Source of the DNA: Kiritimatiellia bacterium
Lineage (GTDB): Bacteria; Verrucomicrobiota; Kiritimatiellia; RFP12; UBA3636
Length of the DNA stretch: 32,000 nucleotides
Assembly (NCBI GenBank): GCA_050942875.1
Contig: JBMNOD010000006.1
Location: 28,609-60,608 of the forward strand
Direction of reading: 5' to 3'
Part shown: piece after piece, positions 1 through 30,980 of the stretch
Numbering within the stretch: position 1 is the first letter of the stretch
How the letters are laid out: each line of letters starts with the position of its first letter
Position numbers and translations under genes: made by a program
Notes under the pieces: model-generated
What the model saw: the letters and a program-made list of their open reading frames with translations, nothing else
Database searches by the model: none
Told to the model about the DNA's origin: nothing

Positions 1-718
1 GGGCGTCGTCCTGTTCTTCCTTCGATGCGGAATCCAGCCCCCGTTGCAAATGCCCCATTGCGTACCACGCCCAGAGGGGGTTGCAAGGCCATGCCAACCG
101 GTTTTCGATTGGGACCAGCATCGATGAAACCCCCATTGAATCCAGCTCCGCCGCAATCGATTCGCAAATATCGACGTTCGCCTTGTCGGCAGGCGACCAG
201 TTGTCAAACGTCATGCAATTGCAGAGGAAGAACGCTTTTTTGCCCGACTGGAAAACCTCCTGGGCCAAACGCCGCGTCGGCTCGTCAAGCCCCTTCGCGC
301 CATGGACGATCAGAACGATGTCGGCCTCCGCCAAGGCGCGCTTCGCGGTCGCATCGTCTTCGGTGGTGGCATCAAACCCCGGCGTGTCGATCAAGCCGAC
401 CCGCTTCAGCATCGGCTTCCAGCAGGCAATCTCGATGCAGTCCTCGCCGGACACCTTAAACGAAGGGGCGAAGATGTCTTCCCGCCGCTCCAGAACCGTG
501 CCGGAAGCGTCGTCAAGGCCTCGGAACAACCGCGCTTCCTCCGCTTCGCCATAGACGAATCGCGTGCAGCAAACCGTCGTCCGGCACCCCTGGCCCATCC
601 GGGCGTAGTTGCCGTCCAGCAGACAGTTGACCAGCGTTGACTTTCCATTCTGGAAGGCGCCCGCCACCACGGCGACGGGCGTCTTTTGCGTTCCAGCCTT
701 GTTCGCCGTCCCGTGCAT
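1..718 (-). CDS. dynamin-family GTPase, N-terminal 239 codons only (gene continues past the left edge)
   Basis: Hand translation of the minus strand from ATG 718-716 gives MHGTANKAGTQKTPVAVVAGAFQNGKSTLVNCLLDG... (G1 P-loop GxxxxGKST) and ...MLKRVGLIDTPGFDATTEDD (G3 DxxG). The frame stays open to base 1, so it is absent from the ORF track. The ATG lies 2 nt after the stop (721-723) of the upstream ORF, which indicates the same operon. Confidence 0.75.
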   Translation of the reverse strand, partial: MHGTANKAGTQKTPVAVVAGAFQNGKSTLVNCLLDGNYARMGQGCRTTVCCTRFVYGEAEEARLFRGLDDASGTVLERREDIFAPSFKVSGEDCIEIACWKPMLKRVGLIDTPGFDATTEDDATAKRALAEADIVLIVHGAKGLDEPTRRLAQEVFQSGKKAFFLCNCMTFDNWSPADKANVDICESIAAELDSMGVSSMLVPIENRLAWPCNPLWAWYAMGHLQRGLDSASKEEQDDA

Positions 719-720
719 GG

Positions 721-3267
721 CTACAACTCGGCTCGCACCTTTCTCTCAAACGCCCTGATCTTCTTTCGAATGGGCTCAATCTTTTCGACACGGAGGCGAT
801 GATTGTTTTTTGCGATCGCAATTCTTTCTGATTCAGCCTTTTCAAAATCTTTCTTGGCGGGCTCATAACGGTCGAGTATAAACCGTCTTCCAAGAAAATT
901 CACGCCTTCTTGCATGTAGTCTATAATTTTATCCTGTGTTTTCATAAAATATTCAACATTCGGTTCGCTCAGTTTTTCTCTCGTTTCCACCGAATCAAAG
1001 AGTTTTTCAAATCCTTCTTTAACTTCAGGCACCAACTTCTCCGCCATGCGACCGATTCGTTCCTTCCCGCTTGTATCAAGTTCCTTATCGGTTGCTCCTT
1101 TTATTCGCTTTATTCCGTCATGGATTTTGTCAAACCAAACACCAAAAATCGTTGCGATCATTTTGAAATAGGGCATTTGATAGACTTCATTCAATTTTTT
1201 GCCAAAATCTTTGTTGTTCAAACAGGCGTCTTGAAATTCAGACAGGAAGGTCTGAATGGTCTCCGCTCCAGGAAGCGAAATTTCAAAATTCGTCAAAAAT
1301 TCAGAATGCTCATTGACAATGGCCTGCCATGATGAATCAATTTTTTTGCCGACGTCCTCGGTACGTCGTTTGAGGGTGTCAAGACTCTTCGGTTTCTGGG
1401 AGTCGTTCTTTGAAGGATGCTTCCAGGACTCCAAAACACGGATGATAGAAGTTCTAAACGCTTCCGACACCCCCGGAGAAGCAAAATCCATAATCTTCAC
1501 TTTCACAGGAGACTTTCTTAACGTCATCATAAAACGTCTTTGGACTTTCACAGTCGCCTCTGCAAATTCTTTAGACGCAGCTTCGAGAAATGCATCGTCG
1601 ACGGCTTCTTCGAAAAGATCGTTAGCCAGTCTTTCAGCAAGAAAGTCTTTGTCTTTTACCAATTCCGAGTCCGCGATATCGGCTTTTGCTCTTTCGACGA
1701 AATGTTGAATGGCAGTCTCAGCCGACTCTGCCGCCTTTTCCCATTCATTCGCATCGCGCGTTGCAGCATCTTCGACAACCTTCAGCGCAGATTCATACTC
1801 CTCCAGAGCCTTCGCCGCCTTCGCGCTGCCGTTGTCAACGAGGATGCTGCGGGCTTTCTTCTCGACGATTTCATTTCCCAGGGCCGTCATGATGTCGTCG
1901 ATGTCGCTCTCCTTTCGGACTGCGGCGACACTATCTTTCGTCAGCCCTGAAACATCCGACAGTGCGTCCAAATCTGTGGCCTGGCCCGCCTTGCGCACCA
2001 TCTCCGCCCACATCGCCGCCGGAGAATCCGGTTTGCCCTCCTTCCACCTCGAATCGACCTTCATGCACTTGCGATCAAAAGCGGTAAACTTTTCGGGGTG
2101 GTTGAGCAGCAAGTCGCCTTGCGCCGCCAGGAAGGACAACCGGGCGTTGTAGGGATGCAGCTTCATCGTGAAACCCCGGTTCTTCAAATCCGACTCGGTT
2201 GCCTCGAAAACCATTCCACGCTTGTCTTCGTGCGAGCCTTTCCAGTTGACGGACGCCGTCATTTTAGGCGCCATGCCCATCTTCTTGATTTCACCAAGGA
2301 TTTTGAGGTCCTTCTGCCCGACTTGTTTCTCGCCGCCGATCAAATACCAGACGCCATCCGAAACGAGAATGGCCCTTCTCGCCACGGCGGTGTCGTAGGC
2401 GTTGGCAAAGAGACCCGGGCAGTCCGTCACGCGGCAACCCAGACGGGCAAGCCCTTCGGAACGGATGCGAAGCAACGTTGAATGCACAAAGACAAAGGCG
2501 ACTTCCATGAAATCAAACTGCGCCTTCTCGCCGGCCATCCACCGCTTCATCCATTCCTTCGGGAATGTGATGAGCGTCTGAAAGTCGTTCACCCCCACGA
2601 CCGTTTTCCTTGTCGCCTTCTGGTACTGCGGCGTCCCGTAGAATCGCTCCTGAAGCGTCGCAATTCGGAGTTGGTCCAGCTCGTCGTCTTCAAGCGAACT
2701 TTTATCGGCACTCCAACTATCCCACCATTTATCCAAGACACGTCGAAGCGCCGCGCGATGGGCGCCATTGTCCAAGTCGAAAAAAGATGCAAAGGCATCG
2801 GCAGCCATCATGTTCTGCTCGAACGCCTCGTCGGAAAGATCGGAAAACAGCTTGCGAAACGGCTGGTCCTCAAGCAGTTCGTCCTTGACGATATCGAACA
2901 TCCCCTGCTGAATCTGGTATTTTGTCTTGAACGTGATTTCCGCCCATTCGGACAGGCCGTCGCGCGTCTCGTCCCCGGAAACGTTCTGGGCGGAGACAAT
3001 GGCGGCGCTCGTCTTGATGCCGCCGCCGCCCAAGCCGCGGGGGCTGAGATCGCGTCCATCGCAAAGCGCGTTGAACGTCGTCGACTTCCCGCCCTGAAAT
3101 TCACCCACAAGGACGATTTCAAACTGGTTCTCAAGGCACTTGGTGCGGATGGCCTTGAGCTCGTCGGCCAGGGATTCGGGGATCTTGAGCCTTGCAGTTT
3201 CTTTCAGAAGCGCAAGGAGCTCGTCGCGGCGATTTTCGTACCAGGTTGATTTGTCGGCGATTTTCAT
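721..3267 (-). CDS. dynamin-family GTPase, 848 aa, with a large insert inside the G domain and a low-GC C-terminal third
   Basis: ORF track. G1 is LVGEFQGGKSTTFNALC (aa 55-63) and G3 is VTDCPGLF (aa 282-285). The remainder is long and helical. A GAGGA lies about 10 nt upstream of ATG 3267. The gene is tightly linked to ORFs on both sides. Confidence 0.8.
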   Translation of the reverse strand: MKIADKSTWYENRRDELLALLKETARLKIPESLADELKAIRTKCLENQFEIVLVGEFQGGKSTTFNALCDGRDLSPRGLGGGGIKTSAAIVSAQNVSGDETRDGLSEWAEITFKTKYQIQQGMFDIVKDELLEDQPFRKLFSDLSDEAFEQNMMAADAFASFFDLDNGAHRAALRRVLDKWWDSWSADKSSLEDDELDQLRIATLQERFYGTPQYQKATRKTVVGVNDFQTLITFPKEWMKRWMAGEKAQFDFMEVAFVFVHSTLLRIRSEGLARLGCRVTDCPGLFANAYDTAVARRAILVSDGVWYLIGGEKQVGQKDLKILGEIKKMGMAPKMTASVNWKGSHEDKRGMVFEATESDLKNRGFTMKLHPYNARLSFLAAQGDLLLNHPEKFTAFDRKCMKVDSRWKEGKPDSPAAMWAEMVRKAGQATDLDALSDVSGLTKDSVAAVRKESDIDDIMTALGNEIVEKKARSILVDNGSAKAAKALEEYESALKVVEDAATRDANEWEKAAESAETAIQHFVERAKADIADSELVKDKDFLAERLANDLFEEAVDDAFLEAASKEFAEATVKVQRRFMMTLRKSPVKVKIMDFASPGVSEAFRTSIIRVLESWKHPSKNDSQKPKSLDTLKRRTEDVGKKIDSSWQAIVNEHSEFLTNFEISLPGAETIQTFLSEFQDACLNNKDFGKKLNEVYQMPYFKMIATIFGVWFDKIHDGIKRIKGATDKELDTSGKERIGRMAEKLVPEVKEGFEKLFDSVETREKLSEPNVEYFMKTQDKIIDYMQEGVNFLGRRFILDRYEPAKKDFEKAESERIAIAKNNHRLRVEKIEPIRKKIRAFERKVRAEL

Positions 3268-3302
3268 GAATTTGAATCCTCTTCAAGTTTGACTTTTCTG
3301 CT

Positions 3303-5627
3303 TCAAGCGACATGGGCGGCGGCGTTTTTCGCTTCAACAACAAGCGGAAGCGCCTGCCGGGCCAGACGGATGCCCGAGGTCGGCGCCTCGGTGAGATCCG
3401 CTTTGTAGTTGCGGGCGATGATGCGGAGCGCGGTGTCGGAGCTCTCCGAACGAACGAAGGCGTCCGTGGCGCTCTCGACGACCGCGGCAAAAATGCGGTT
3501 GGGGGAAAAGGACTGCGTTGTCGCCGCGTTTTTCTCAAGGGATTCCAGGAGATCCTTGAGGATCAAAGGATCGGGAACTACGCGCTCAAGCTGCCGCCTC
3601 CATTTTTCCAGCCCTCCCGTGGAGCCCGCCGCACGGCTCTTCATCGCGGCATGGTACTTGTTCGCGCTGTCGCGAAGCTGCTTGAGCAAGGCGTCGACAA
3701 ACGATTCCGCGTCCTTGTCGTCACCCGTTTTGTATTGAGGCAATTCGTTGGCGCGAATGACGTCCGACACGGCGACAAGCGTCGGTTCGAGGTGGAACCG
3801 GAAGCGGAGGTCGAACTCGCAAAGCCGCTCAAGCGGAGCCGCAAGCTGGGCGAGCACCTTGTCCTCGCCTCGCTTCTGGCCTGGCGTCCGGCGGATTTTC
3901 TCTGCGGTTTCCTTGAGTTGCGCGCGAACGGACGCGAGGTCGTTGGCGGCGTCGGGACGCGCCGGCACGAAGGCGCGCGTCGGCGCTTTCAAGCTCTCGA
4001 CGATGCCGTCCAGGATTTCCGCGATGCGTCCCTGGAGATGGTCGTCCGTCCGATCCCACTGCTCGCGGAAACGGACGCGAAGGGTGTTGATCACATCGGA
4101 TGGCTGGGCGCGCTTGCGCACCATTTCATCCCGGACCGCCTGACGCAACGCCTCGACGGAACCATAGCCGCAGCCCTCGTCAATCCACTTGAGAACCAGC
4201 TCGGCGGTTCGGCTGACTTCGGCATCCCATTCGGCATCCACCCCGGCTTTCTGGGCCGACACCTTCTGCGCGAATGCGTTCAACGACTTGGCGATGTCCC
4301 GGATCAAGCCTTCCGCGAACAGCTCGTCGCTCTGGTTGTCCTTCGCGACATCCTCGATCTTGCGTGAAACGTCGTCCAGGATTTTTTGAATGCCCTTCAA
4401 GCTTCGCCCGGCCTCCTTTTTGACCGCTTCATCTGCGGCGGCATCGATCTCCGAAAGGTTGTCCCCGAGGAACCTGAGGATTTCCGGCATCGTTTTCTCT
4501 CTCACGTTCTTGCGGTTGCTGGCGTCGCATCGGATGATCTTGAACCGCGACGCTTCGGATCGCTTCTCGTTGATGTTGCGATGGATCGAATCGATGCACC
4601 CCTCTGCACGTTCGGGATCCTGGTTGTCGACATTGGCAAGCACGAGCGTGAATTTCGATTGATCCTGCACCAGCGGGTTCGCCTCCCCCATGGCGACCAG
4701 GGCATTGTCGTCCGCGCCCGTCCACTCGATGTTGGTGTCCAAGGGACGTTTCATCAGAAGCGTCATGTCGCACTCGTCTTTCATGCCCTGCGCCTGCACA
4801 CGCGCCAAATCGCGGCCCGCTTCGCCAACGCCGGGAAGATCGACAACCCGAAGCTGCCTGACCTCGGCCGACGGGAACGGCACTCGGATGACGAGGTTCT
4901 TCACCGCGAGGAACGGCCCGGCCTTTGTCCTGCCGCCTTCAGGATAGGCGACGTACGGGCGCAATTCAGGAAGCGGGATTTTCCGCTGCCGCTCCCCGGT
5001 GAGCTCATCCCGATAGGTCGCATGCGCTTGTCGCGCATCCTCGAGTCGAGCGAGAACCGATTTCTGCTCGTCGTACTTCAAATTGTCGCTGGAAAACGTC
5101 ATCCCGACAAAATCGTCAAATGTGCGAGGAGCCGGGAACCGGACCGCATCGCACATCGGCGCAATGACTTCCGCCAGAAAACTGGCCTCGGTATGCATGT
5201 CGGCAATGGCGACGCCCTCCTGGTTCGTATTCTCAATCACGCTGCGGATCGCCGTGGTGAAATACTTGTCGGAAGTCGGAATCTGCGTTTCCCCGAGGCC
5301 GGTCACCGCCTGGAGGAAGGTGCTCTTGCCCATGCGGGCGGCGCCCCCGATGCCGATGCAGACCGTGTCGCGGCTGAACCGCTCCAGAAGAACCGCGTAT
5401 TTTCGCACCACCTCATCCGCTGAAACGACGGCATCCCGGATCTGATTCGAAAGCCCTTTCAGGGATTCGTTCCCCTCTGCGGAACCGGCGGCATGGACGG
5501 TGCCGACAGACCGATCCAAGGCGTCTCTGAGCGAAGCCCATTTGGCTTTCTCCGCCTCGATTGCGGGCAGCCGCGTTTTTCTCGCTTTGAGGATGGAATC
5601 GATTTTAGACTGGATGGATGATGTCAT
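3303..5627 (-). CDS. dynamin-family GTPase, 774 aa
   Basis: ORF track. G1 is GIGGAARMGKSTFLQAV (aa 93-102) and G3 is VVDLPGVG (aa 263-266, the DLPG form typical of dynamins). The C-terminal region is long and helical. There is a 35-nt gap to the next gene. Confidence 0.75.
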   Translation of the reverse strand: MTSSIQSKIDSILKARKTRLPAIEAEKAKWASLRDALDRSVGTVHAAGSAEGNESLKGLSNQIRDAVVSADEVVRKYAVLLERFSRDTVCIGIGGAARMGKSTFLQAVTGLGETQIPTSDKYFTTAIRSVIENTNQEGVAIADMHTEASFLAEVIAPMCDAVRFPAPRTFDDFVGMTFSSDNLKYDEQKSVLARLEDARQAHATYRDELTGERQRKIPLPELRPYVAYPEGGRTKAGPFLAVKNLVIRVPFPSAEVRQLRVVDLPGVGEAGRDLARVQAQGMKDECDMTLLMKRPLDTNIEWTGADDNALVAMGEANPLVQDQSKFTLVLANVDNQDPERAEGCIDSIHRNINEKRSEASRFKIIRCDASNRKNVREKTMPEILRFLGDNLSEIDAAADEAVKKEAGRSLKGIQKILDDVSRKIEDVAKDNQSDELFAEGLIRDIAKSLNAFAQKVSAQKAGVDAEWDAEVSRTAELVLKWIDEGCGYGSVEALRQAVRDEMVRKRAQPSDVINTLRVRFREQWDRTDDHLQGRIAEILDGIVESLKAPTRAFVPARPDAANDLASVRAQLKETAEKIRRTPGQKRGEDKVLAQLAAPLERLCEFDLRFRFHLEPTLVAVSDVIRANELPQYKTGDDKDAESFVDALLKQLRDSANKYHAAMKSRAAGSTGGLEKWRRQLERVVPDPLILKDLLESLEKNAATTQSFSPNRIFAAVVESATDAFVRSESSDTALRIIARNYKADLTEAPTSGIRLARQALPLVVEAKNAAAHVA

Positions 5628-5710
5628 GGCGTTTGTTTCCTGAGGATTCGAGTGAAAGGAAATTCAATCCGCCAGGCGGAAGCCTGGCGGCAAAAAAGAC
5701 GACCGTGCGA

Positions 5711-7429
5711 CTACAAGGCCGCGACCGCCTGTTCGAGTTCGGACTTCAGGGCGAGAAGCGCCTGTTTTTCCTCGGACGATGCTTCCGATCTCATGCCCGC
5801 CCGTATTGCCGCAATTTGTTCCTCGTACTGGGCGACCAGCCCTTGTTTCGCCTCGCCCTTGATCTTCTCGAAGTTTTCGTCAAGCTGCGACTGAATGCTC
5901 TCAGTCATTTGCCGCCGGGCTTCATCAAGCTGGGTTTTCACCTTCTTGACCAAGACGGCCTTCACAAGATTCTGGGACGTCAGTTTGTTTAAAAGCGGGA
6001 CGTTGCTGTGGAGGATTCTGCCGACCACGGCGAGGATCCAACCCATGGGAAGCAGCAGATTCATCACGGCGACGTTCACGACTTCACAGGCAAAAGCGGG
6101 GATTTTTCCGGCGACGCCCGGATCAATGCTCAGTCGCTCCCTGGCAAATTCGCTGAAGCCCATGCCAACAGAAGCCATGTCGCCTTGGTACTTGAAGACG
6201 ACCTGCTGCACGTCGTTGTTCACTTGCGCTTGCACGCCATAAAGCAGAAAGGTCATTTTCCTGTTCATCTTCTGCTCCAGCAACCCGACAAACTTCTGTA
6301 CGTCACCCAATTCCTTTCGGGCGCCGATTTCCTCCATGAGTTCATCAAAGACCTGAGCTATAGCGTCTTCAAATCTCTCAAGCGATTTCATTTTAACGGT
6401 GTCGAAATCGCCCTCGATCTGCCGGAACAAACGCTCGAAATTGTCACGAAGCTCCTTTTCCTTCCTGTCGAGCTCGACTGAAAGCGCCGCTTTCTCAGCG
6501 TCGGATTGCCCCAGCGTGCTGATCTTTGCGGAAATCTCCATCAGCAGGTTGCCGAGGAAGCGCTTCGTGCGAAGGGCCACTTTCTCGGTGCGCCCCTCCA
6601 AGGCGTTCTTCACCAGAAAATCGCGGATGACGAATCTGATTTCCGGAACCGTGTTGAGAATGTCGGGCACCGCCTCGTCGAAGCAAAACATTTCAACCGG
6701 GACGTCCTCCTTCCCGATGTTGGCCAACTGGGCCTTGACGGTCTCCATGATGTTCTTGCGGGTTTCTTCCGTGCGTTCGCTTTCGGGACGATAGGAAAGG
6801 AGCACCATCAGCCTGGAGATGCCGTCATTCACCAGATCCCGGCGGATCAGCGTCATCTCCACCTCGTCAAGCTGGGAACATCCGGCGACGACGATCGCCA
6901 AGTCCGCTTCGGGGATGACGCGATACGTTGTGTTGACGAGCAAGCTGGGATCCGGATCGTCGATCCCCGGCGTGTCCACAATCGTGTACCCCTTGAGATG
7001 CTCGTTGGGGGTCAGGACGCGAACCTTGGGCAGACGAGCCGCAAGGGCGGCACGCGACTCTCCGGTATTGGCGACCGTCACGTCGCGGATGTCGTCTTTC
7101 GTCGGATTGTCAATTGTGCGGTCAATGCCGACCTTCGTCTTTTCCCCGTCGGCCCATTTGTAGACAACCAGTTTGGAATCAAGGCCGTAGGCGACCTCGG
7201 TCGCCACGGCCGTCGTGCAGATCCCGTTCCCCTCCAGAAGCAGCGGCGCATCGCCGAGGAAGGCGCGGTTGACGAGCGTGGACTTGCCCACCTGGTACTT
7301 TCCCACGACGGCAACCCGAAACTCCGGGTTGTCCAGTGCCTCAATGTCCGCCCGCAACTTCTCCGGCAAAGCCACGGCGTTTTTGTTCAATACCGAAACC
7401 GCATTCTGGATCGCATTCCTTTTGCTCAT
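5711..7429 (-). CDS. bacterial dynamin-like protein (BDLP-type), 572 aa, with a hydrophobic paddle
   Basis: ORF track. G1 is VVGKYQVGKSTLVN (aa 43-51) and G3 is IVDTPGIDD (aa 152-155). A helical stalk follows. The hydrophobic hairpin IPAFACEVVNVAVMNLLLPMGWILAVVGRIL (aa 442-473, nt about 6011-6106) resembles a BDLP membrane paddle. This is the first gene of the operon. Confidence 0.85.
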   Translation of the reverse strand: MSKRNAIQNAVSVLNKNAVALPEKLRADIEALDNPEFRVAVVGKYQVGKSTLVNRAFLGDAPLLLEGNGICTTAVATEVAYGLDSKLVVYKWADGEKTKVGIDRTIDNPTKDDIRDVTVANTGESRAALAARLPKVRVLTPNEHLKGYTIVDTPGIDDPDPSLLVNTTYRVIPEADLAIVVAGCSQLDEVEMTLIRRDLVNDGISRLMVLLSYRPESERTEETRKNIMETVKAQLANIGKEDVPVEMFCFDEAVPDILNTVPEIRFVIRDFLVKNALEGRTEKVALRTKRFLGNLLMEISAKISTLGQSDAEKAALSVELDRKEKELRDNFERLFRQIEGDFDTVKMKSLERFEDAIAQVFDELMEEIGARKELGDVQKFVGLLEQKMNRKMTFLLYGVQAQVNNDVQQVVFKYQGDMASVGMGFSEFARERLSIDPGVAGKIPAFACEVVNVAVMNLLLPMGWILAVVGRILHSNVPLLNKLTSQNLVKAVLVKKVKTQLDEARRQMTESIQSQLDENFEKIKGEAKQGLVAQYEEQIAAIRAGMRSEASSEEKQALLALKSELEQAVAAL

Positions 7430-7566
7430 GTCGCCCTCTTTTTCTTGAGATTCGTGAGTACTCCTGGCTTTGTGGCGGAGTCAACCTAGACAAAGGCCAT
7501 GAATTGCCGCAATTGTACTATCATAGTGTGTAGATTGTCAACTGCCGTAAATGTTAATTTTTGGAC
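7430..7566. promoter_or_regulatory. divergent control region between the GTPase operon and the XRE gene
   Basis: This 137-nt intergenic region is visibly more AT-rich than its flanks. It contains the palindromes AATTG-CCG-CAATT (7502-7514) and ACTAT-C-ATAGT (7517-7527). I could not assign -35/-10 boxes confidently. Confidence 0.35.
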
Positions 7567-7806
7567 ATGGCAAAGTCCGCCTCCAAAAAAGTCCACCATC
7601 GGCACCTGCTCGGGCTCGCCCTCCGGCGGCGACGGCAGGAGTTGGGATGGTCGCAGGAACGTCTCGCGGAATTCGCCGACGTGCATCGCAATTTCGTCGG
7701 CCTTGTCGAGCGGGGCGAGCAGAATGTGTCCATCGACAGCCTCGTGCGGTTCGCCACCGCGCTGAGGACGTCGCTGGCGCACATCTTCGAAGACGCAGGG
7801 CTTTAA
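7567..7806 (+). CDS. XRE (Cro/CI-type) helix-turn-helix transcriptional regulator, 79 aa
   Basis: The sequence LGLALRRRRQELGWSQERLAEFADVHRNFVGLVERGEQNVSIDSLVRFATAL fits the classical HTH_3/XRE pattern. The ORF track starts at TTG 7561; the ATG at 7567 is more likely. Confidence 0.8.
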   Translation: MAKSASKKVHHRHLLGLALRRRRQELGWSQERLAEFADVHRNFVGLVERGEQNVSIDSLVRFATALRTSLAHIFEDAGL

Positions 7807-7901
7807 CCTCAACCGAGAAACGGACTTTTTCAAACCATTTCGTACCATTTTGCACCATCACTGTAGGCATCCGCGCCCGACGACGGCTGAAGCGAATCGT
7901 C

Positions 7902-8008
7902 GTTCGCCCATCGCGAGCCGTGTCGATCGTACACGTTCACGGTACAGTCATTTTTCGTGTACGGGTACGTGAACCGCTTCGCTGTGAACGTGAACGATGC
8001 GCCGGAAG
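7902..8008. repeat. repeat module A, copy 1
   Basis: The string gttcgcccatc...cgttcacggtacagtcatttttcgtgtacgggtacgtgaaccgcttcgctg...ccggaag recurs at 8816-8948. It also occurs as a partial inverted copy at about 29711-29800. Confidence 0.85.
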
Positions 8009-8051
8009 TGGACGCGGCGTCCCCGCCGCGTGTCGCCCCACCCTTTTCACT

Positions 8052-8079
8052 ATAATCTCGAAAAAAGTTTCGAGATTAT
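8052..8079. repeat. AT-rich perfect hairpin of the CCATAATCT family
   Basis: The sequence ataatctcgaaa-aaag-tttcgagattat forms a 12-bp stem. Related copies lie at 8191-8215, 8758-8784, 9030-9054 and 22529-22556. Confidence 0.85.
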
Positions 8080-8153
8080 GGAAATAAGTCCAATCCTGTT
8101 AATCTTGTAATCCTGTCAAAATTATTGAAGCCATGAGGTGGCGAACGGACACG

Positions 8154-8307
8154 CCGGGACGGCGTCGCCCCACCTTCCATCCATCCGCCATAATCTGGAA
8201 TTTTCTTCCAGATTAAAGCAAGTGGGGAGGAATATAACGGGGCACGGGTTTTCCAACCCGTGGACGACCACGGACAGGAATGTCCATGCCCCTGGTTTCG
8301 AGGCGCC
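8154..8307. repeat. repeat module B, copy 1 (about 150 bp, multi-hairpin)
   Basis: It is near-identical to 8993-9147. It contains the hairpin taatctggaa/ttccagatta and a nested core (8239-8295): GGGGCACGG[GTT-ttcc-AAC]CCGTG...[GGACA-ggaa-TGTCC]...GCCCC. Confidence 0.9.
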
Positions 8308-8410
8308 CTTCACGGCGTTCAGGCGAATGGCGACACGCGGCGAGGACGCCGCGTCCACTTTGCTCTGCGTACTTGATTGCCTGGAACATCGCAAGCCGGG
8401 TCGCGGGGTG

Positions 8411-8503
8411 GGACGAGCGTCGCTCGTCCGTTCGTGCGGACAAGCAGACGCTTGTCCCGCTCATGCGAAAGGCAAACTCCGGCGGACAAGCAGACGCTTG
8501 TCC
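8411..8503. repeat. cluster of GGAC...GTCC palindromic hairpins
   Basis: The cluster holds ggacgagcg-t-cgctcgtcc (8411-8429) and ggacaagc-agac-gcttgtcc, the latter twice (8438-8457 and 8484-8503). Confidence 0.85.
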
Positions 8504-8815
8504 CGAGCTTCGCGCCAAGGGACTGCCGTTCAAGGGCTTGTCGACGGCGTCGACGTCAAGCCACCCATCCCGTCCACTGCGTCCACAAAGTCCACTCCGC
8601 CCCCCATCCACCAAACCAAAGATTCCCCCCTTGGCGTCCTTGGCGAGCTTGGCGTGAGGTTTTTCACGCAAAGAACACAAAGTGCGCAAAGTTCTTTTCA
8701 ACTACGAAAAAGGAGTCGCAGTTGGTGGGCGGCGGGGTGGACGCTCTGCCACCCGCCATAATCTCGAAGTTTTTTCAAGATTATAGTGGTGTAGGTGCGG
8801 ACGCTGGGGCGCTTA

Positions 8816-8948
8816 GTTCGCCCATCATGAGCCGTGTCGGTCGTACACGTTCGCGTTCGCGTTCGCGTACCCGTTCACGGTACAGTCATTTTTCGTGTAC
8901 GGGTACGTGAACCGCTTCGCTGGGTACGGGGACGTGAACGTCCGGAAG
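8816..8948. repeat. repeat module A, copy 2 (with a (cgttcg)x3 insertion at 8848-8865)
   Basis: This is a direct repeat of 7902-8008 and differs mainly by the hexamer array. Confidence 0.85.
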
Positions 8949-8992
8949 GCGGGCATTGTGTGAACCAGTCGCCATGCAGACGAAGCGGCTAG

Positions 8993-9147
8993 CCGGGACG
9001 GCGTCGCCCCACCTTCCATCCATCCGCCATAATCTGGAATTTTCTTCCAGATTAAAGCAAGTGGGGAGGAATATAACGGGGCACGGGTTTTCCAACCCGT
9101 GAATGCACCCACGGACAGGAATGTCCGTGCCCCTGTTTCCGAGGCGC
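8993..9147. repeat. repeat module B, copy 2
   Basis: This is a direct repeat of 8154-8307. Differences are concentrated in the linker between the two inner hairpins (gtggacgaccacgg versus gtgaatgcacccacgg). Confidence 0.9.
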
Positions 9148-9156
9148 ACCGCGCTG

Positions 9157-9245
9157 GGGCGCGGGCGACAAAAACGCGGCGGGGACGCCGCGTCCACAGG
9201 AGGAGGGCGCGGGCGACAAAAACGCGGCGGGGACGCCGCGTCCAC
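9157..9245. repeat. tandem 41-bp unit x2 (gggcgcgggcgacaaaaacgcggcggggacgccgcgtccac)
   Basis: The units lie at 9157-9197 and 9205-9245. Each ends in the palindrome GGACGC-C-GCGTCC. Confidence 0.9.
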
Positions 9246-9346
9246 TTTGCTGCGCTGAAATCAATGATCCGACTGAACTAACCCCTGGCCGCTTCTCATC
9301 GACAAAGCCGCCCTTGGACCCGGGCTCGGCGTCGATGGCGTCGGTG

Positions 9347-9410
9347 ACGTCGACAAAGCTCTTTCGACAAAGCTGCCCTCCGGCACACTAGCGACTAGCC
9401 ACTAGCGACT
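9347..9410. repeat. composite repeat (CGACAAAG x2 plus a CTAGCGA heptamer array), inverted partner of 17192-17270
   Basis: The reverse complement reads agtcgctagtggctagtcgctagtgtgcc..ggcagctttgtcgaaagagctttgtcgac. This resembles 17192-17270. Confidence 0.7.
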
Positions 9411-15911: not shown

Positions 15912-17186
15912 ATGAAATTCAACACCACCCGCCTGAAGCGCGACTTCCAGCTCGGCGTCAAGAACCTGATGCTCCACAAGCTCCGATCCCTGCTCACCAT
16001 GCTCGGCCTCGTCTTCGGCGTCGGCAGCGTGATCGCCATGCTCGCCATCGGCGAAGGCGCCAGCCAGGAGGCCATGGACCAGATCCGCAAGCTCGGCAGC
16101 CGCAACATCATCATCTCCTCCCAGAAGCCCGTCGAGGACAGCGGCTCGGCGCAGAGCAACGTGCGCGTCAGCATCTACGGCCTGCTCTACGAAGACCTCG
16201 AACGCATCGCCCAGACCATCCCCACCGTCGTCGCCACCGTGCCCGTCAAATCGCTCCAGCAGCAGGCGCGCCTCGGACGCCGCGAGCAGGAATTGCGCAT
16301 CGTGGGCACCACGGATCGCTGGTTCGAGCTTGTCGAGCGCGACGTCGTCGCCGGCCGCGTCATGAACGCGCGCGACGTGGAATCCGCCGCCTCGGTCGTC
16401 GTGCTCACCGAATTCGGCGCACGCCGCCTGCTCGCGACCGAATCGGCGATCGGACGCCAGATCCGCATCGCCGGCAAGGCCTACGAGATCATCGGCATCG
16501 TCCAGAGCGAAGACACCAGCGCCGGCGGCATGCAGACGCCCGACCGCCAGACGGACGCCTACATCCCCCTCTCCACCGCCCGCCAGCACTACGGCGACGT
16601 CTTCTTCCAGCGCAAGCAAGGCACCAACATCCGCGAAATGGTGGAGCTGCACCAGCTCATCGTCAGCGTCGGCAACGAAGCCGAAGTCGAGCCCGCGGCC
16701 GTCGCGATCGAGCACGTGCTCGAACGCTTCCACAAGAAGAAGGACTACGAGATCAGCGTCCCCCTCGCCCTGCTCCGCCAGGCCGAAGCCACGAAGCGCA
16801 CGTTCGCCATCGTGCTTGGCTCCATCGCCGGCATCAGCCTGCTCGTCGGCGGCATCGGCATCATGAACATCATGCTCGCGACCGTCACCGAACGCACCCG
16901 CGAAATCGGCATCCGCCGCGCCATTGGCGCCCGCCGCTCGCAGATCGTCTCCCAGTTCCTCATCGAAACGATCGTCCTCTCGCTCAGCGGCGGCGTCATC
17001 GGCATCGGCGTCGGCCTCTTCATCCCGTGGCTCGTCACCGCCTTTGCGAAGATGCCCACCGTCGTGACGCTCCACAGCATCGTCCTCTCGCTCGGCATCA
17101 GCGTCAGCGTCGGCATCGTCTTCGGCATCTACCCCGCCCGCCGCGCCGCCCGCCTCGACCCCATCGAAGCGCTCCGCAGGGAATAG
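15912..17186 (+). CDS. ABC transporter permease (MacB periplasmic domain plus FtsX domain)
   Basis: It is 424 aa with an N-terminal TM, a large periplasmic domain and a C-terminal FtsX-like 3-TM region (GGIGIMNIMLATVTERTREIGIRRAIGA). Confidence 0.9.
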   Translation: MKFNTTRLKRDFQLGVKNLMLHKLRSLLTMLGLVFGVGSVIAMLAIGEGASQEAMDQIRKLGSRNIIISSQKPVEDSGSAQSNVRVSIYGLLYEDLERIAQTIPTVVATVPVKSLQQQARLGRREQELRIVGTTDRWFELVERDVVAGRVMNARDVESAASVVVLTEFGARRLLATESAIGRQIRIAGKAYEIIGIVQSEDTSAGGMQTPDRQTDAYIPLSTARQHYGDVFFQRKQGTNIREMVELHQLIVSVGNEAEVEPAAVAIEHVLERFHKKKDYEISVPLALLRQAEATKRTFAIVLGSIAGISLLVGGIGIMNIMLATVTERTREIGIRRAIGARRSQIVSQFLIETIVLSLSGGVIGIGVGLFIPWLVTAFAKMPTVVTLHSIVLSLGISVSVGIVFGIYPARRAARLDPIEALRRE

Positions 17187-17191
17187 AACTC

Positions 17192-17270
17192 AGCGGCTAG
17201 CGGCCAGCGGCTAGCGGCTAGTGCCAAAGGCGAGCTTTGTCGAAAGCTTTGTCGCAAAACTTTGTCGACC
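17192..17270. repeat. composite repeat: AGCGGCT heptamer array (17192-17221) plus CTTTGTCG x3 (17235-17267)
   Basis: It begins 6 nt after the permease stop. It is the inverted partner of 9347-9410. Confidence 0.75.
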
Positions 17271-17300
17271 TGTCGTGGCGGCTTCGCCGAGTTGTTTTCT

Positions 17301-17476
17301 TCCCACGAATCTCCGCGAATGGAAGGCAGTTTTTCCCGGTCTTCGACCGTCGTTAATCACTGAAAAACTGCCTTCCTTGCTGGATGCGTGGTTTGTACCA
17401 CAGGGGGGAATGTTGAGCGATGAGCGACGGCCGCAGGCCGACAACATTCCCCTCTGCTTCGCGGAGATTCGTGGGA
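17301..17476. other. 176-nt three-way-junction inverted-repeat element (MITE-like or ncRNA candidate)
   Basis: The outer 19-bp inverted repeat is perfect (17301-17319 / 17458-17476). Inner hairpin 1 has a 15-bp perfect stem (17321-17335 / 17362-17376) and a 26-nt loop. Inner hairpin 2 has an 11-13-bp stem (17403-17415 / 17442-17454) and a 26-nt loop. Confidence 0.8.
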
Positions 17477-17520
17477 GCTAAAAGGTCATTCCCGAGGTCT
17501 GGGGCAGGCCGCTTCGCGGC

Positions 17521-17562
17521 AGCGGCTAGCGGCTAGCCCCTAGCGACTAGCGACTAGCGACT
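17521..17562. repeat. heptamer tandem array (agcggct x2, agcccct, agcgact x3)
   Basis: Six 7-nt units are present. CTAG sits at every unit junction (TAG at 17527, 17534, 17541, 17548 and 17555). Confidence 0.9.
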
Positions 17563-17703
17563 CAATCGGGCAGGCGGCGGGGCGGGTTCGAGGCTGGACG
17601 ACAAGCGTTCCGAAGCAACCCCGTCGACTGACCGATTACGATTACAATCAATGAACGGCAAGCAACGGATCTGCCGCCCATCGAGGAATCAACCGGCTCG
17701 TCC

Positions 17704-18618: not shown

Positions 18619-19065
18619 CTAGTTTGCAGGCGCTTGTTCGGACTTCCTTAGTCCATTCCAGATTTGATCAACTTCCGGCGAGTCCGCGATTCGCGGCCAA
18701 CCTTGCGTGCGCACAATGTTCTTGCGAAGCCCCAAGGCGGCCAAGTTCGCCTCCACATCGGACAGATTGCCCTGTGCAGATGATAGCGTCTTCATGTCCA
18801 CCACGAAGTAAAATGGGTGCGTGCGATTGTCGTCCCCGCCGTGTCTGCATCTGCCCGATGCCGCTCGTGCGATGTGGGTGATCTCGGTTGCGTACGAGAA
18901 GATGATCGCTTCACCGGTGTCGATTCCGCCATCGGCGATTCGTCCCTGTGTGAGCAGAAACTGTCCCGGCGGATTCCTGTTTGGCAGCTTCACCTCGAAA
19001 TAGGTGTCTACGCTAGCTCGATCGGGAAAGTCGATGTCCTTGGAACTCAGTTTGATTATCCTCAT
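18619..19065 (-). CDS. hypothetical protein, 148 aa, downstream partner of the SEFIR/TIR gene
   Basis: ATG 19065 is preceded by AGGAGAAAGAACC, a good RBS. The protein begins MRIIKLSSKDIDFPDRASVDTYFEVKL... and I recognise no motif. The ORF-track start at 19167 would overlap the upstream gene and adds a non-protein-like extension. Confidence 0.6.
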   Translation of the reverse strand: MRIIKLSSKDIDFPDRASVDTYFEVKLPNRNPPGQFLLTQGRIADGGIDTGEAIIFSYATEITHIARAASGRCRHGGDDNRTHPFYFVVDMKTLSSAQGNLSDVEANLAALGLRKNIVRTQGWPRIADSPEVDQIWNGLRKSEQAPAN

Positions 19066-19141
19066 GGTTCTTTCTCCTGTCCGAACGACTGCACTCACGG
19101 GCGGCGGTACGCCGTACCGTGGAGTGCTTTGTTGTGCCTCC

Positions 19142-20587
19142 TCATGGGAGCGAAGCCAGTTTGTCAACCCCCATCAGGCTGAATGGATTAAACGATTGAA
19201 ACTCCCACCTAGGAATTTGTAGTTTCTGTTCCTTGAAAGCTTCGGCGAGAGGCAGAAAATCGTCTTTGGATTCGATATCGAAGATCTGTTTCACATTCTC
19301 GAAATACTTAGATGATTGACTACGTGCGAAGATCTCAAAAGGGCCATACTGCCGACCAGAGTAAAGCAATGTAACCGGCAACCAGCCCTGCCGACGACCT
19401 GTGCGGAGGACATCCAGACAGTCTCTCACAAAGAGGGCTAGATCAGCTTGCATAATCTGCTGAAACAGCCCTGATGCTTTGGACCTCTGTTCAAGAAGGT
19501 CAGCGTGTAGGGAGAGCCTGCGGAGTTTAAGTCGCGTGTTTCTGTGGTCCAGCGACTGCAAAAATACGCTAAGTTTTGAGAACGGCACCATCGTGTCCCG
19601 ACCACGCTTTGAGTTCTGGTCAACGTAGTAGTGCTGGCGCACAAGATGGGCGACTCCATCAAAGCGCTCTGCACGTAGAAGTACAGCAACAAGATATAGA
19701 AACAGTTCGTGGACAATGAACTTGAGATTGTCGAAGTCCCAGTCTTGCCAACTGGTGACACCATCTGGCCGATCGAAGTAAGGGAAGAGTGACTCTATGA
19801 AATAGTGCAAGGACTCCCAAGACGCTACCGTAGGGCGGTATCTCGCAATAGCAAGGAATAGTTCAATGGCTTCGTTTCGGTATGGCAGGAACTCATCAAT
19901 GCTGCGGACAACCTTCTCGTCGAACTCCTCATTGTCCTTTTCTATACGAAACCGCTCAAGATTCTCGGCAACCACCTCCACATATTCGCGGAGTGCGCCA
20001 TCGCAGTAGGGTTTGTTTTCTCGTACAGCCTGCAACGCTCGCCGGAACTGGGCTGTCGCTTGAAGCGATATCGGCGCGTCGTCAGAAAGAAACGCCGGGG
20101 CACTACCAAGCTCGGGCTTTACATGGAGAGGCTTGTCGTATATCCAGCGGAGAAGTTGCTCGAAATTCCTTGCGTACAGGTCTGGATCACTGAGGTCGAT
20201 ATAGACACGGGATTTGTAGTAAGCGGGGAGGAATGGTTCTCCCTTAGTGTCCCGTTGCGGCAACACGGCGACGAACTTGGTTTGATCCTGCTTCGCATAG
20301 ATCTCGCCAGAAAGGATTTGCGCTTCTGTGCCAACGCCACCACTTCGGCCGTCCGCCTTTTCGGCGTAGACTTGATCACAAATCATGGCCACCTTCTTGA
20401 TCTCTGGATCTGTGACCATCTTTTCCATGAACGCGTGCGCATCATGGCCTTCCTTCAGATCCCATTTGTCTAAAATGACATCAACTCCATTCTCCCGGAG
20501 TTGGGTGGCCAACGACAGCACCCACTCCTCATGTGAGGATGAGGTCCAGCTGTATGAAATAAACAGCTTCGGTGGGTTTACTGTCAT
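19142..20587 (-). CDS. SEFIR/TIR-domain protein with an unassigned helical C-terminal domain, 481 aa
   Basis: The N-terminus reads KLFISYSWTSSSHEEWVLSLATQLRENGVDVILDKWDLKEGHDAHAFMEKMV..KVAMICDQVYAEKADGRSGGVGTEAQIL, the bacterial SEFIR/TIR_2 pattern. About 310 further residues are helical. Local GC is low. Confidence 0.8.
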   Translation of the reverse strand: MTVNPPKLFISYSWTSSSHEEWVLSLATQLRENGVDVILDKWDLKEGHDAHAFMEKMVTDPEIKKVAMICDQVYAEKADGRSGGVGTEAQILSGEIYAKQDQTKFVAVLPQRDTKGEPFLPAYYKSRVYIDLSDPDLYARNFEQLLRWIYDKPLHVKPELGSAPAFLSDDAPISLQATAQFRRALQAVRENKPYCDGALREYVEVVAENLERFRIEKDNEEFDEKVVRSIDEFLPYRNEAIELFLAIARYRPTVASWESLHYFIESLFPYFDRPDGVTSWQDWDFDNLKFIVHELFLYLVAVLLRAERFDGVAHLVRQHYYVDQNSKRGRDTMVPFSKLSVFLQSLDHRNTRLKLRRLSLHADLLEQRSKASGLFQQIMQADLALFVRDCLDVLRTGRRQGWLPVTLLYSGRQYGPFEIFARSQSSKYFENVKQIFDIESKDDFLPLAEAFKEQKLQIPRWEFQSFNPFSLMGVDKLASLP

Positions 20588-20728: not shown

Positions 20729-21052
20729 TTAATCTTTGGTCTTGCCTTTAAGGCAGGCTTTATGCAAACTGTTGAAGTAGTCTTTGTGAGGGTTTATGGT
20801 TTTAAAGACGGGCCCCTTTTTTGCATTTTCGATCGTTTGCTTGAGCATTCTCCCATACGATGCCGGGTAATGCCTTTTGTAAAACGCAAGGTTCGAGGCC
20901 CGGATGCGCTGATACCAGAAACGATCGTCGTCAACTGGACGCCCTCGGGTCACGCAAACATAGCATTCCGTTTCCGAACAAGAGAATTTTTCAAGCCACG
21001 CTCGAAATTCTTGCCGAGACGTTACGTCCAACTTGTTTTTATGTTCCATCAT
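20729..21052 (-). pseudogene. internally deleted copy of the YdeI/OmpD-associated family gene
   Basis: It shares the first 47 residues (counted from MMEHKNK) with the 21361-21939 gene. It then jumps from ...RFWY directly to QRIRASNLAFY..., which is an in-frame loss of 96 codons. The C-terminus has diverged. Confidence 0.7.
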
Positions 21053-21274
21053 GTCCTTTCCCTCGAATCCGCAGGAAGGATATCCCATGCGAAACGCCCG
21101 AGTCAACCGGAACCATAAAAAAATTGGGGGACAGACCCCTTCCGCCCGTGTCGAACTCAGCGGCTAGCGGCTAGAGCGACTTGAGAAATAATATCGCCGC
21201 ACGATTTGAACTAGGATTCGGCGTTTTGGAGCTGGAGGATAGAATATGGACACGGATTTTCTTAAACCGCTCTA
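20813..21274. repeat. tandem segmental duplication, unit A (deleted version)
   Basis: It aligns with 21412-22161 apart from the 288-bp deletion. It includes the shared upstream block caaccggaaccataaaaaaattgggggacagaccccttccgcccgtgtcgaactcagcggctagcggctagagcgac... Confidence 0.9.
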
Positions 21275-21360
21275 TGAAGGGAGTTTTAGATTTGTGATTT
21301 GTGATTTGCCGCGAGGCAGCTTTGTCGCAAACTTTGTCGGACCATGGGGGTTGAACAGAA

Positions 21361-21939
21361 TCAGGGAACTTCCAGCAATCTCCCATAATCATTCCAGTTG
21401 CCGCACGTTTTCCCCTTTTTTGCATTCTCGATCGTTTGCTTGAGCATTCTCCCATACGATGCCGGGTAATGCTTTTTGTAAAACGCAAGGTTCGATGCCC
21501 GGATTCGCTGATACAGGGGGTGGAAGGATTTGAAAGCCGACCAAACCCGGGCGTTTTTCAAGGCGGCCTCGACCTCCTTGTCGATTGTGAAAGCACCGGG
21601 CTCCATCGCAGGCAAAACGGCGCGCCCGGCATCGGTCATCAACCCCAGTTTTTCGAGTCTTCGCACGCGCACTTTATTCAATTCAGTCCAATTGCCGTTC
21701 TTGCGCCTGGGGGAAAACCGCTGCATCTTTTTCCCATCGATCATTCTGATGGTGCTGTCAATCCATCCAAAACACAGCGCTTCTTCGACGGCATCCAAAT
21801 ACCAGAAACGATCGTCGTCAACTGGACGCCCTCGGGTCACGCAAACATAGCATTCCGTTTCCGAACAAGAGAATTTTTCAAGCCACGCTCGAAATTCTTG
21901 CCGAGACGTTACGTCCAACTTGTTTTTATGTTCCATCAT
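21361..21939 (-). CDS. YdeI/OmpD-associated family protein (DUF1801-like), 192 aa
   Basis: The sequence ...FRAWLEKFSCSETECYVCV..GRP.....FWYLDAVEEALCFGWIDSTIRMIDGKKMQRFSPRRKNGNWTELNKVRVRRLEKLGLMTDAG fits the YdeI family pattern. I chose ATG 21939, which follows GAGGGAAAGGA, over the track start at 21993. Confidence 0.8.
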   Translation of the reverse strand: MMEHKNKLDVTSRQEFRAWLEKFSCSETECYVCVTRGRPVDDDRFWYLDAVEEALCFGWIDSTIRMIDGKKMQRFSPRRKNGNWTELNKVRVRRLEKLGLMTDAGRAVLPAMEPGAFTIDKEVEAALKNARVWSAFKSFHPLYQRIRASNLAFYKKHYPASYGRMLKQTIENAKKGKTCGNWNDYGRLLEVP

Positions 21940-22161
21940 GTCCTTTCCCTCGAATCCGCAGGAAGGATATCCCATGCGAAACGCCCGAGTCAACCGGAAC
22001 CATAAAAAAATTGGGGGACAGACCCCTTCCGCCCGTGTCGAACTCAGCGGCTAGCGGCTAGAGCGACTTGAGAAATAGTATAGCCGCACAATTTGAATTA
22101 GGATTCGGCGTTTTGGAGCTGGAGGATAGAATGTGGACACGTATTTTCTTAAACCGCTCTA
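21412..22161. repeat. tandem segmental duplication, unit B (full version)
   Basis: See 20813-21274. The period is about 887 bp. Confidence 0.9.
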
Positions 22162-22396
22162 GAGGTTAGATCAGCCGGATCAGACCGATCATTGATTTTG
22201 CGCAGCCCAGTGGACGCGGCGTCCTCGCCGCGTGGCAAAGTACCAACCCGGCTACGACGGGTTGCCCACTCGCCCTGGAAGGGCGCTCCGAGGCAGGGGC
22301 GACGCCGTCCTCGGCGGGCTCCAGCGTTCCGGCTCTTCGTTCGCCCATTGTGAACCGTGTCGTTGGGGACCGCGGTCTCCGCGGGCAATGGACATA

Positions 22397-22453
22397 GGGG
22401 CACGGGTTTTCCAACCCGTGAACGACCACGGACAGGAATGTCCGTGCCCCTGG
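22397..22453. repeat. third copy of the nested multi-hairpin core element
   Basis: The sequence ggggcacgggttttccaacccgtgaacgaccacggacaggaatgtccgtgcccctgg matches 8239-8295 and 9078-9135. The flanking modules are in a different order and orientation. Confidence 0.9.
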
Positions 22454-22528
22454 TTCCCAACCGCACCGCGCCGAAGCGCGGGCGAAGGGCGGCTCGCCGG
22501 GACGGCGCCACCCCACCCTGCCACCACC

Positions 22529-22556
22529 ATAATCTTGAAAAAAAATTCAAGATTAT
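22529..22556. repeat. AT-rich hairpin of the CCATAATCT family
   Basis: The sequence is ataatcttgaa-aaaaaa-ttcaagattat, preceded by ccaccat and followed by ggaaat. Confidence 0.85.
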
Positions 22557-22730
22557 GGAAATCCAGCAAAGCCCTGAAGGAGCATCCCCAATATCGTACG
22601 GGCGGGGCTTTGCCCCCGCCCCGGGGCTTCGTCCCCGCCCCCAGGGGCAAGCGAAGCGCCGCCCCGGGCTGCCGAAAGCAAGACGGCGCGGCCTGAAGGG
22701 GCGCTTCAAGCCGCCGTCAGGGAACTGCCG

Positions 22731-27947: not shown

Positions 27948-27948
27948 C

Positions 27949-29656: not shown

Positions 29657-29830
29657 ATGCCCTCCTTGATGGCAGGCATTATACAATCTTTGTATGATTC
29701 TCGTCAACCGAATCGTACCCGTACCCAGCGAAGCGGTAAGCGTTCACATTCACGAAAAACGGAAACGGGGGGCGTGAACGGGTACGGGTACGTGAACGAG
29801 CGGGCTTTTGGGGACAGACCCCGGTGCTCC

Positions 29831-30819: not shown

Positions 30820-30980
30820 AATGAATCATGATAGCAGTTGGCGTTTCACAACTCAAGCCTTGAGCATTTGGAAGACGTTTCACCAAGGAGCTTTTGGGGA
30901 CAGACCCCAAGATGGCGAGAAGAGAGGAGTGAGGAGTGAGGAGTTTCCGCTGGGGCTTCGCCCCAGACCCCCCTTTCTCA

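Follow-up and report, generated by a model that had tools for sequence, protein, structure and literature searches.

A conserved operon of four dynamin-like proteins with variable effector-like partners and recombining stalk cassettes: a candidate conflict system in a Kiritimatiellia bacterium and its relatives

Bacterial dynamin-like proteins (DLPs) have been found encoded singly, by tandem gene pairs or as fused proteins. Tandem genes are the rule in the LeoABC-type class (PMC4159319), and the pairing of DLP genes in operons suggests that their products form heterotypic oligomers (PMC4159319, PMC6104087). Eleos, a two-gene dynamin-like anti-phage system made up of LeoA and LeoBC, co-localises with known defence systems in about 60% of cases (Millman et al. 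2022, 10.1101/2022.05.11.491447), DynA of B. subtilis contributes to phage resistance (PMC8844932), and the virus-binding interface of MxA evolves rapidly (PMC11482965; PMC4687636). Here we describe a locus that encodes four different DLPs, D1 to D4, in one operon. It lies in a 32,000-nucleotide stretch of a Kiritimatiellia bacterium genome (assembly GCA_050942875.1, contig JBMNOD010000006.1, positions 28,609 to 60,608), hereafter the window, in whose coordinates features are given unless another contig is named. The locus represents a conserved multi-subunit DLP operon with two DLP pairs, variable effector-like accessories, and recombining hypervariable stalk cassettes. No description of four-DLP or multi-dynamin operons, or of dynamin with DUF445, patatin or TIR proteins, was found in the searchable literature, where coverage of subscription journals is incomplete.

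The four genes lie on the minus strand at the left end of the window: D1 (5711-7429, 572 aa), D2 (3303-5627, 774 aa), D3 (721-3267, 848 aa) and D4 (2-718), which the window edge cuts to its N-terminal 239 aa. The intergenic gaps D1-D2, D2-D3 and D3-D4 are 83, 35 and 2 nt; the D4 start codon stands 2 nt past the D3 stop, and the corresponding open reading frames (ORFs) overlap by 4 nt in a related gut Lentisphaeria locus (L003). Each protein carries a G1 string (GKYQVGKST, GGAARMGKST, GEFQGGKST and GAFQNGKST in D1 to D4, respectively) and a G3 string (DTPG, DLPG, DCPG and DTPG). These co-directional ORFs, with their sizes, gaps and motifs, were all found as the original prediction, made from the sequence of the window, had described them, and its expectation that the operon reaches past the window edge was borne out by a Logan contig (L001) retrieved by exact-protein look-up. 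This contig is identical to the window across the overlap and carries the operon further left, with a complete D4 (7246-8196 of L001, 316 aa) followed by at least three further genes, which encode a 212-aa coiled-coil protein (CC), a 297-aa M48 peptidase with an HExxH motif and a C-terminal zinc ribbon (family match 1.9e-18), and a 435-aa DUF445 protein (7e-27) with three hydrophobic, transmembrane-like regions. The window thus shows only the 5' end of an operon with seven genes or more, D1-D2-D3-D4-coiled coil-M48 protease-DUF445, divergent from a gene for an XRE-family regulator. In the NCBI annotation of the Kiritimatiellia metagenome-assembled genome (MAG), D1 to D4 are MGI5868159.1 to MGI5868156.1 (D4 being MGI5868156.1) and the DUF445 protein is MGI5868153.1; D2 and D3 are annotated as hypothetical.

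Profile searches placed two of the four proteins directly in the dynamin superfamily. Against Pfam Dynamin_N (PF00350; gathering cut-off 27 bits) D1 scored 46.6 bits (5.1e-12) and D4 43.7 bits (4e-11), Pfam MMR_HSR1 being the weaker match for both, and the best match of each in the PDB was IniA (8.7e-11 for D1, with mitofusins next; 2.4e-6 for D4, followed by Mfn2 at 1e-3). D2 (16.0 bits) and D3 (16.3 bits) fell below the Dynamin_N cut-off. Family profiles built from 33 homologues of D2 and 36 of D3 retrieved nothing from the PDB for D2, and for D3 no DLP, only ApoA-I and Era noise; Pfam and PADLOC gave D2 no assignment. Since sequence searches left these two proteins unplaced, their structures were predicted with AlphaFold2 from family alignments, giving models with a predicted local distance difference test score of 84.3 and a predicted template modelling score (pTM) of 0.81 for D3, and of 83.8 and 0.57 for D2. 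At least the top 30 Foldseek matches of these models were all DLPs, with E-values of 1e-13 to 1e-6: the D3 model was closest to SynDLP (2.8e-13), then IniA, BDLP, Cj-DLP1/2 and mitofusins, and the D2 model to BDLP (9e-11), then SynDLP, IniA, Cj-DLP, Mfn1, Fzo1 and MxB. The TM-scores of these matches were low (0.2-0.5), which we attribute to probable differences in hinge conformation. D1 to D4 can be assigned to the BDLP/mitofusin-type dynamin-superfamily proteins, as had been proposed, with the folds of D2 and D3 taken from predicted models.

Membership in other TRAFAC families, which had been named as the finding that would overturn the dynamin assignment, was rejected for all four proteins, because the best scores against Era, EngA/Der, HydF and YeeP-like models were 25-27 bits, far under the family cut-offs of 42-631. 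The set is an old one, as anticipated, and not a recent duplication: D1 and D4 are 27% identical over the G domain, BLAST detects no similarity of D2 to the other three paralogs, and the order of the genes is fixed across loci save for an exchange of D1 and D2 described below. Profile-to-profile alignment with hhalign gave probabilities of 89% for D1/D3, 69% for D1/D2 and 2.9% for D2/D3. Both the P-loop and DxPG are intact in all family members of D1 (28), D2 (25) and D4 (37), and in 43 of 51 of D3, in which the G domain also holds a helical insert of about 120 aa. D1 has a hydrophobic, paddle-like hairpin at aa 442-473 (Kyte-Doolittle maximum 2.01 at aa 447-473), with P444, L460, P461 and G463 invariant among homologues, and some D3 homologues have a transmembrane-like tip. 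The long helical region that had been expected after every G domain is wanting in D4, which is complete at 316 aa without a long stalk and has homologues mostly of 235-320 aa.

The locus is like Eleos in having adjacent paralogous DLP genes, a P-loop in each product, weak Leo similarity of D1 and D4, and a candidate role in defence. PADLOC matched D1 to LeoBC (3.6e-16) and LeoA (7e-13) and D4 to LeoA (1.7e-11), and LeoA (4aur) appeared among the fold matches of D2 at 5.5e-3. These similarities, and the tandem DLP genes typical of the class (PMC4159319), would fit a true Eleos in expanded form, or else a module of the LeoABC kind that serves vesiculation or virulence. That either describes the locus is, in our judgement, very improbable. 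The NCBIfam LeoA/HP0731 model (NF041922, cut-off 325) gave 15.1 bits for D1 and 13.8 bits for D3, and none of the four proteins reached the cut-off; the PADLOC matches of D1 and D4 covered the models only in part, LeoBC met D3 over the P-loop region only (1.9e-05), and D2 had no Leo match, leaving D2 and D3 without assignment by Leo models. IniA, BDLP and SynDLP are better matches in structure and sequence, and whereas Eleos has two genes (or a split three), here four DLPs are encoded with CC, M48 and DUF445 proteins, and with patatin or TIR in relatives. On these grounds the operon was not assigned to Eleos.

Campylobacter Cj-DLP1/2 (5owv/5oxf), Nostoc BDLP1/2, mycobacterial IniA/IniC and the fused DynA share with D1-D4 the BDLP/mitofusin fold, in which a G domain is followed by a helical neck and trunk, and they resemble our operon further in their operonic pairing and in the paddle-like hydrophobic hairpin seen here in D1. 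Unlike these, the operon encodes two pairs, a D4 that has no long stalk, a D3 with an insert in its G domain, conserved M48 and DUF445 partners, and hypervariable stalk cassettes that recombine. The GTPase-centric conflict systems of Kaur, Burroughs, Iyer & Aravind (2020, PMC7159879) are similar in combining several paralogous TRAFAC GTPases with variable effector-like genes. They differ in that D1-D4 have no DO-GTPase Pfam match and no GAP1, GASH or FNIII component was seen; that paper does not mention dynamin, and we rejected the systems it describes as a prior description because DO-GTPase, GAP1 and GASH are absent here. DO-GTPase2 was met only next to distant D2-like DLPs (about 745-820 aa), in Clostridia MAGs (L015-L019) and in L022/L023, which head a different conserved operon. 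In L017 its further products are DO-GTPase2, a vWA protein, a Sel1-S8 peptidase and two unknown proteins, and in L022 a resolvase gene on one side and a transposase gene on the other enclose those for the D2-like protein and DO-GTPase2. These operons link the DLP clade to the GTPase-centric conflict systems.

About 60 related loci were mapped by look-ups, a genome scan and a metagenome scan, with genes called by our own ORF heuristics. Full-length homologues numbered in the hundreds for D3 and for D2. Run against 1.84 billion proteins, the D2 profile retrieved 1,123 cluster representatives, of which only some eight were full-length close relatives (>770 bits), and the D2 family is tight, at 755-774 aa and about 45% identity. 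Every related locus had the D3-D4 pair, and D3 and D4 were adjacent, D4 directly after D3, in nearly every locus with downstream sequence, usually in the company of D1 and D2, and comparison of the gene neighbourhoods showed the order of the quartet to be conserved. Around this core, architecture, gene order (D2-D1 or D1-D2) and gene content vary. Type A, that of the window, is [XRE] D1-D2-D3-D4-CC-[M48]-DUF445; type B is [DUF445] D1-D2-D3-D4-(D3-D4)-F7-CC2-M48-patatin-[Peptidase_Mx]; type C is XRE D1-D2-D3-D4 with a protein of about 232 aa; type D is D2-D1-D3-D4-[DUF445]; and type E has a long D3 with D4 only. A D2-less variant (L025) reads D1-D3-M48-D4-DUF445-TerB/DnaJ. The accessories that differ by locus are M48, DUF445, patatin (1.7e-27), TerB-DnaJ and a TIR_2 domain (3e-21) fused to the N-terminus of some D3 homologues. 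This TIR domain aligns with a TIR-SAVED effector, including a Glu that we take to be the catalytic residue. The D3-D4 module is duplicated in tandem in L005, L006, L036 and L041.

Some of the relatives (L043, L045, L047, L048, L052, L054/L055 and L059) are 'pair-only' loci with a D3 of 1012-1285 aa and a D4 of about 190-305 aa and with neither D1 nor D2; L054 and L059 have similarly sized small co-directional genes upstream, and loci of this kind may be a further system type. Genomes with assigned taxonomy mostly belonged to the Planctomycetes-Verrucomicrobia-Chlamydiae (PVC) bacteria, namely Kiritimatiellia, Lentisphaeria and Verrucomicrobia. The D3 of L013, a 4168-bp contig of a MAG labelled Spirochaetaceae, shares 90-91% identity with its counterparts in L011 (a reindeer MAG), L020 and L037, which could reflect either a very recent cross-phylum transfer or a mis-binned short contig; as mis-binning is possible for a 4-kb MAG contig, we did not accept spread to Spirochaetota as firm.

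The most informative comparison came from six gut Lentisphaeria loci in which mosaic system genes stand between flanking proteins that are 97-100% identical. Relative to L003, identity ranged over 86-99% for D1, 76-95% for D2, 67-98% for D3, 94-97% for D4, 73-82% for CC and 96-100% for DUF445. Synonymous divergence (dS) differed more than 10-fold between adjacent genes of the same locus pair, as between L003 and L029 (D1 0.044, D2 0.467, D3 0.583, D4 0.085, CC 0.437, DUF445 0.035), indicating that the divergence stems from imported alleles and not from local acceleration; the gene-wide ratio of nonsynonymous to synonymous divergence (dN/dS) in these comparisons was 0.1-0.34. Variation among the strains was concentrated in the stalks and tips, at about aa 400-720 of D2, 520-800 of D3 and 440-520 of D1, and the G domains of the same strains were 90-99% identical. 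A hypervariable stalk/tip cassette is also evident in the D3 of the window (about aa 500-800): compared with the nearest relative, L074, which has the gene set XRE-D1-D2-D3-D4-CC-M48, identity is 74-92% over the first 500 aa and falls to 18-28% over aa 500-800; M48 is 90% and D2 80% identical. Genomes that are nearly identical have thus swapped divergent alleles of the stalk and tip segments of D3, D2 and D1 and of the coiled-coil protein, a pattern like that of an arms race. By analogy only, animal Mx proteins likewise vary in a stalk-associated surface and conserve the G domain (PMC11482965, PMC4687636). Unlike Mx, to which the four proteins bear no specific sequence relationship, the variation here arises by allele or cassette exchange, with gene-wide dN/dS below 1. 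In the gut Lentisphaeria loci L003/L004/L021/L009/L029/L034, genes for a sigma-70 factor of the extracytoplasmic function type and a Ser/Thr kinase follow directly 3' of DUF445 on the same strand, and in L005 a kinase gene lies upstream of the system; a regulatory link of these genes to the DLP system in Lentisphaeria is possible.

The repertoire of accessories and the mosaic alleles bear on whether the operon might serve envelope repair. In such a role, like that of IniA/IniC or DynA in antibiotic and pore stress, the DLPs would seal or remodel damaged cytoplasmic membrane, the HtpX-like M48 peptidase would clear damaged membrane proteins, DUF445 would act as a membrane adaptor, and any effect on phage would be secondary. 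IniA is the best PDB sequence match of D1 and D4, the D1 paddle hairpin and the three hydrophobic regions of DUF445 suit a membrane function, and M48 and DUF445 are the most persistent accessories, retained even in the D2-less locus that also carries TerB-DnaJ; many of the loci have housekeeping flanks, and the locus is stable in gut Lentisphaeria. Repair alone is hard to reconcile with the fusion of TIR to D3, the patatin genes and the tandem D3-D4 duplications, and leaves the cassette-like replacement of stalk tips between near-identical strains unexplained; the distribution is sporadic and the GC content at third codon positions (GC3) atypical. We regard repair as the main rival of the conflict reading set out below, a serious one though less probable.

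Composition and distribution also speak to a third possibility, that the operon is a vertically inherited housekeeping machine, specific to PVC lineages and serving the dynamics of endomembranes or of cell division. The PVC bias of the assigned genomes, the synteny kept within one Lentisphaeria complex and the failure to find the system on plasmids, phages or viral contigs would all be expected of such a machine. Only a handful of species genomes carry the system, however: two near-invariant D2 peptides matched about 6 of 185,579 species genomes, with the quartet. The flanks differ in every other lineage, architecture, gene order and gene content vary, and alleles are mosaic. In the window the GC3 of the operon is 0.61-0.77, compared with 0.80-0.93 in housekeeping genes, and resembles that of acquired genes, such as a nearby bSEFIR gene (0.56) and toxin-antitoxin genes. 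The overall GC content of the operon is about 10 points under that of its flanks in L003, L006 and L012; we did not take low GC by itself for a sign of transfer, since helical proteins rich in Lys and Glu bring GC down, but GC3, checked separately, was also atypical. A housekeeping machine thus seems decidedly improbable, and the patchy composition and accessory character ascribed to the cluster were upheld by its GC3, its lineage-specific flanks and its rarity among species genomes.

One argument for that accessory character did not survive. A 1.5-kb block of dispersed direct and inverted repeats (7850-9400), read earlier as a border of the operon, was rejected as a mobile-element border because its repeat families turn up again at 22.2-22.6 kb and 29.7 kb of the window; they have the look of intergenic repeats spread over the genome, not of operon-specific borders. 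Short palindromic intergenic repeats, for example GGGGCACGGGTTTTCCAACCCGTG and CCATAATCTGGAATTTTCTTCCAGATTA, occur at 7850-9400, 17177-17564, 22200-22562, 29709-29759 and 30882-31205, recurring at the borders of low-GC3 segments (the DLP operon, bSEFIR, a toxin-antitoxin pair and a small-ORF island). They could be elements of the repetitive extragenic palindrome or miniature inverted-repeat transposable element kind that mark insertion hot spots. No tRNAs, tandem repeats or Rfam families were found in the window, which argues against an integration site or an RNA component there.

The XRE gene that had been noted beside the quartet is indeed present and divergent (7561/7567-7806, plus strand; 79 aa from the ATG at 7567), and its product matches HTH_3 (1.3e-11) and the PADLOC model 'Control_protein' (1e-12). 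Between it and D1 lies a strong sigma-70-like operon promoter on the minus strand (7512..7541; TTGACA, 18-nt spacer, TACAAT) that matches 11 of 12 consensus positions. A palindrome, ACTATCATAGT (7517-7527), overlaps the -10 region and the spacer, and both the hexamers and the palindrome are kept in the nearest relative despite a coding dS of about 0.7-1.2, making the palindrome a candidate XRE operator. Among the related loci, L074, L011/L020 and L056 also have a divergent XRE gene ahead of the system; most of the others do not. In the D1-D2 gap a GC-rich hairpin on the minus strand (5669..5690), recognised by consensus match only, is a possible attenuator; eight of the nine base pairs in its stem are GC, and the T tail is weak.

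We favour, at a probability of roughly one half, the reading that the operon is a multi-dynamin conflict system directed against phage, similar in logic to Mx and Eleos and distinct from Eleos itself. The TIR and patatin accessories and the mosaic stalk cassettes strengthen this inference circumstantially. A number of observations weigh against it. Helical stalks are less constrained in general, and gene-wide dN/dS, at 0.1-0.4, gives no sign of positive selection. At the G4 position expected from sequence, no canonical NKxD was seen in any of the four proteins (D1 LSYRPE, D2 ANVDNQD, D3 NWKG, D4 NCMTFD), which bears on nucleotide specificity, and HtpX-like M48 together with DUF445 would fit membrane-protein quality control. 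A search with D3 found no copy on plasmids, phages or IMG/VR viral contigs; the copy in the window has no integrase, transposase or tRNA beside it; ordinary housekeeping genes border many of the loci; and throughout the gut Lentisphaeria species complex the system keeps stably to one locus. PADLOC 2023 gives no system-level match to the operon, and among 139 flank ORFs of 25 loci a few percent, counted without a background rate, match defence models (DruE, PDC-S05, PDC-S02, mad3/mad6, HipA and YhcG). Such neighbours speak for the conflict reading where they occur: a PIN toxin-antitoxin pair and a YhcG nuclease adjoin the system in L020, and in the window the bSEFIR gene is 11.7 kb from the operon, with six housekeeping genes between.

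In its boldest form the conflict reading makes the operon an Mx-like immune machine and a new defence family, in which heterotypic D1/D2 and D3/D4 pairs would assemble on the membrane, exchangeable stalk-tip cassettes of D3, and of D1, D2 and the coiled-coil protein, would determine specificity by recognising phage structures, and GTP-driven assembly would trigger a dedicated effector that blocks or aborts infection; the chance that this form is right we put well below even. In the favoured reading as a whole, the machine, a hetero-oligomer of dynamin-like proteins, would sit at the cytoplasmic membrane, with which the D1 paddle and DUF445 probably associate it, judging from their sequences, and the operon would be held repressed by XRE. 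During infection, the hypervariable stalk tips would recognise a phage-derived structure or a membrane lesion, and the two DLP pairs would co-assemble on the membrane in a GTP-dependent manner, anchored by the paddle and DUF445. The assembled complex might then seal or sequester the site, or activate the M48 protease; in variant loci the activated effector would be patatin or TIR, and the infection would be aborted.

Elsewhere in the window, the bSEFIR gene (19142-20587, minus strand) encodes a full-length defence protein (PADLOC 2.9e-120; Pfam SEFIR 1.5e-17, and TIR_2) and lies in an island of low GC3 (0.56). The beginning of the gene overlaps an unannotated ORF of 182 aa (18619-19167, minus strand) without a family match. 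Beside this island are a 300-nt direct repeat of 99% identity (20912-21211 and 21799-22098) and a 103-nt repeat (20813-20915 and 21412-21514), and these repeats, at 20813-22098, point to a small mobile element or to local duplication in the recent past. A PIN/ribbon-helix-helix toxin-antitoxin pair (28983-29707, minus strand) is followed by two small ORFs of 151 and 178 aa (29831-30819, minus strand) with very low GC3 (0.45-0.48), beside which lies an 86-nt inverted repeat (30952-31037 and 31114-31199). The 178-aa ORF has no Pfam or PADLOC match, and the 151-aa ORF, scanned with PADLOC only, has none there. A further gene (27922-28980, plus strand) fuses a CoaB-type DFP domain (3.3e-71) to a C-terminal glyoxalase/VOC domain (3.4e-15), an unusual combination in a folP-cdaA-ybbR block that is otherwise ordinary.

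This would be the first conserved system of four DLPs to be described. Its D2 and D3 proteins are so divergent that profile databases miss them both, and it combines fixed partners, the M48 protease and DUF445, with swappable effector-like modules, patatin and TIR. The mosaic variation of the stalk tips leads to a testable hypothesis on the seat of specificity, with a parallel in the rapidly evolving surface by which animal Mx proteins bind their targets. Should the system serve defence, it would give dynamin-based immunity a new family and a tractable model; otherwise it would still be a new multi-subunit membrane-remodelling machine of gut and rumen PVC bacteria.

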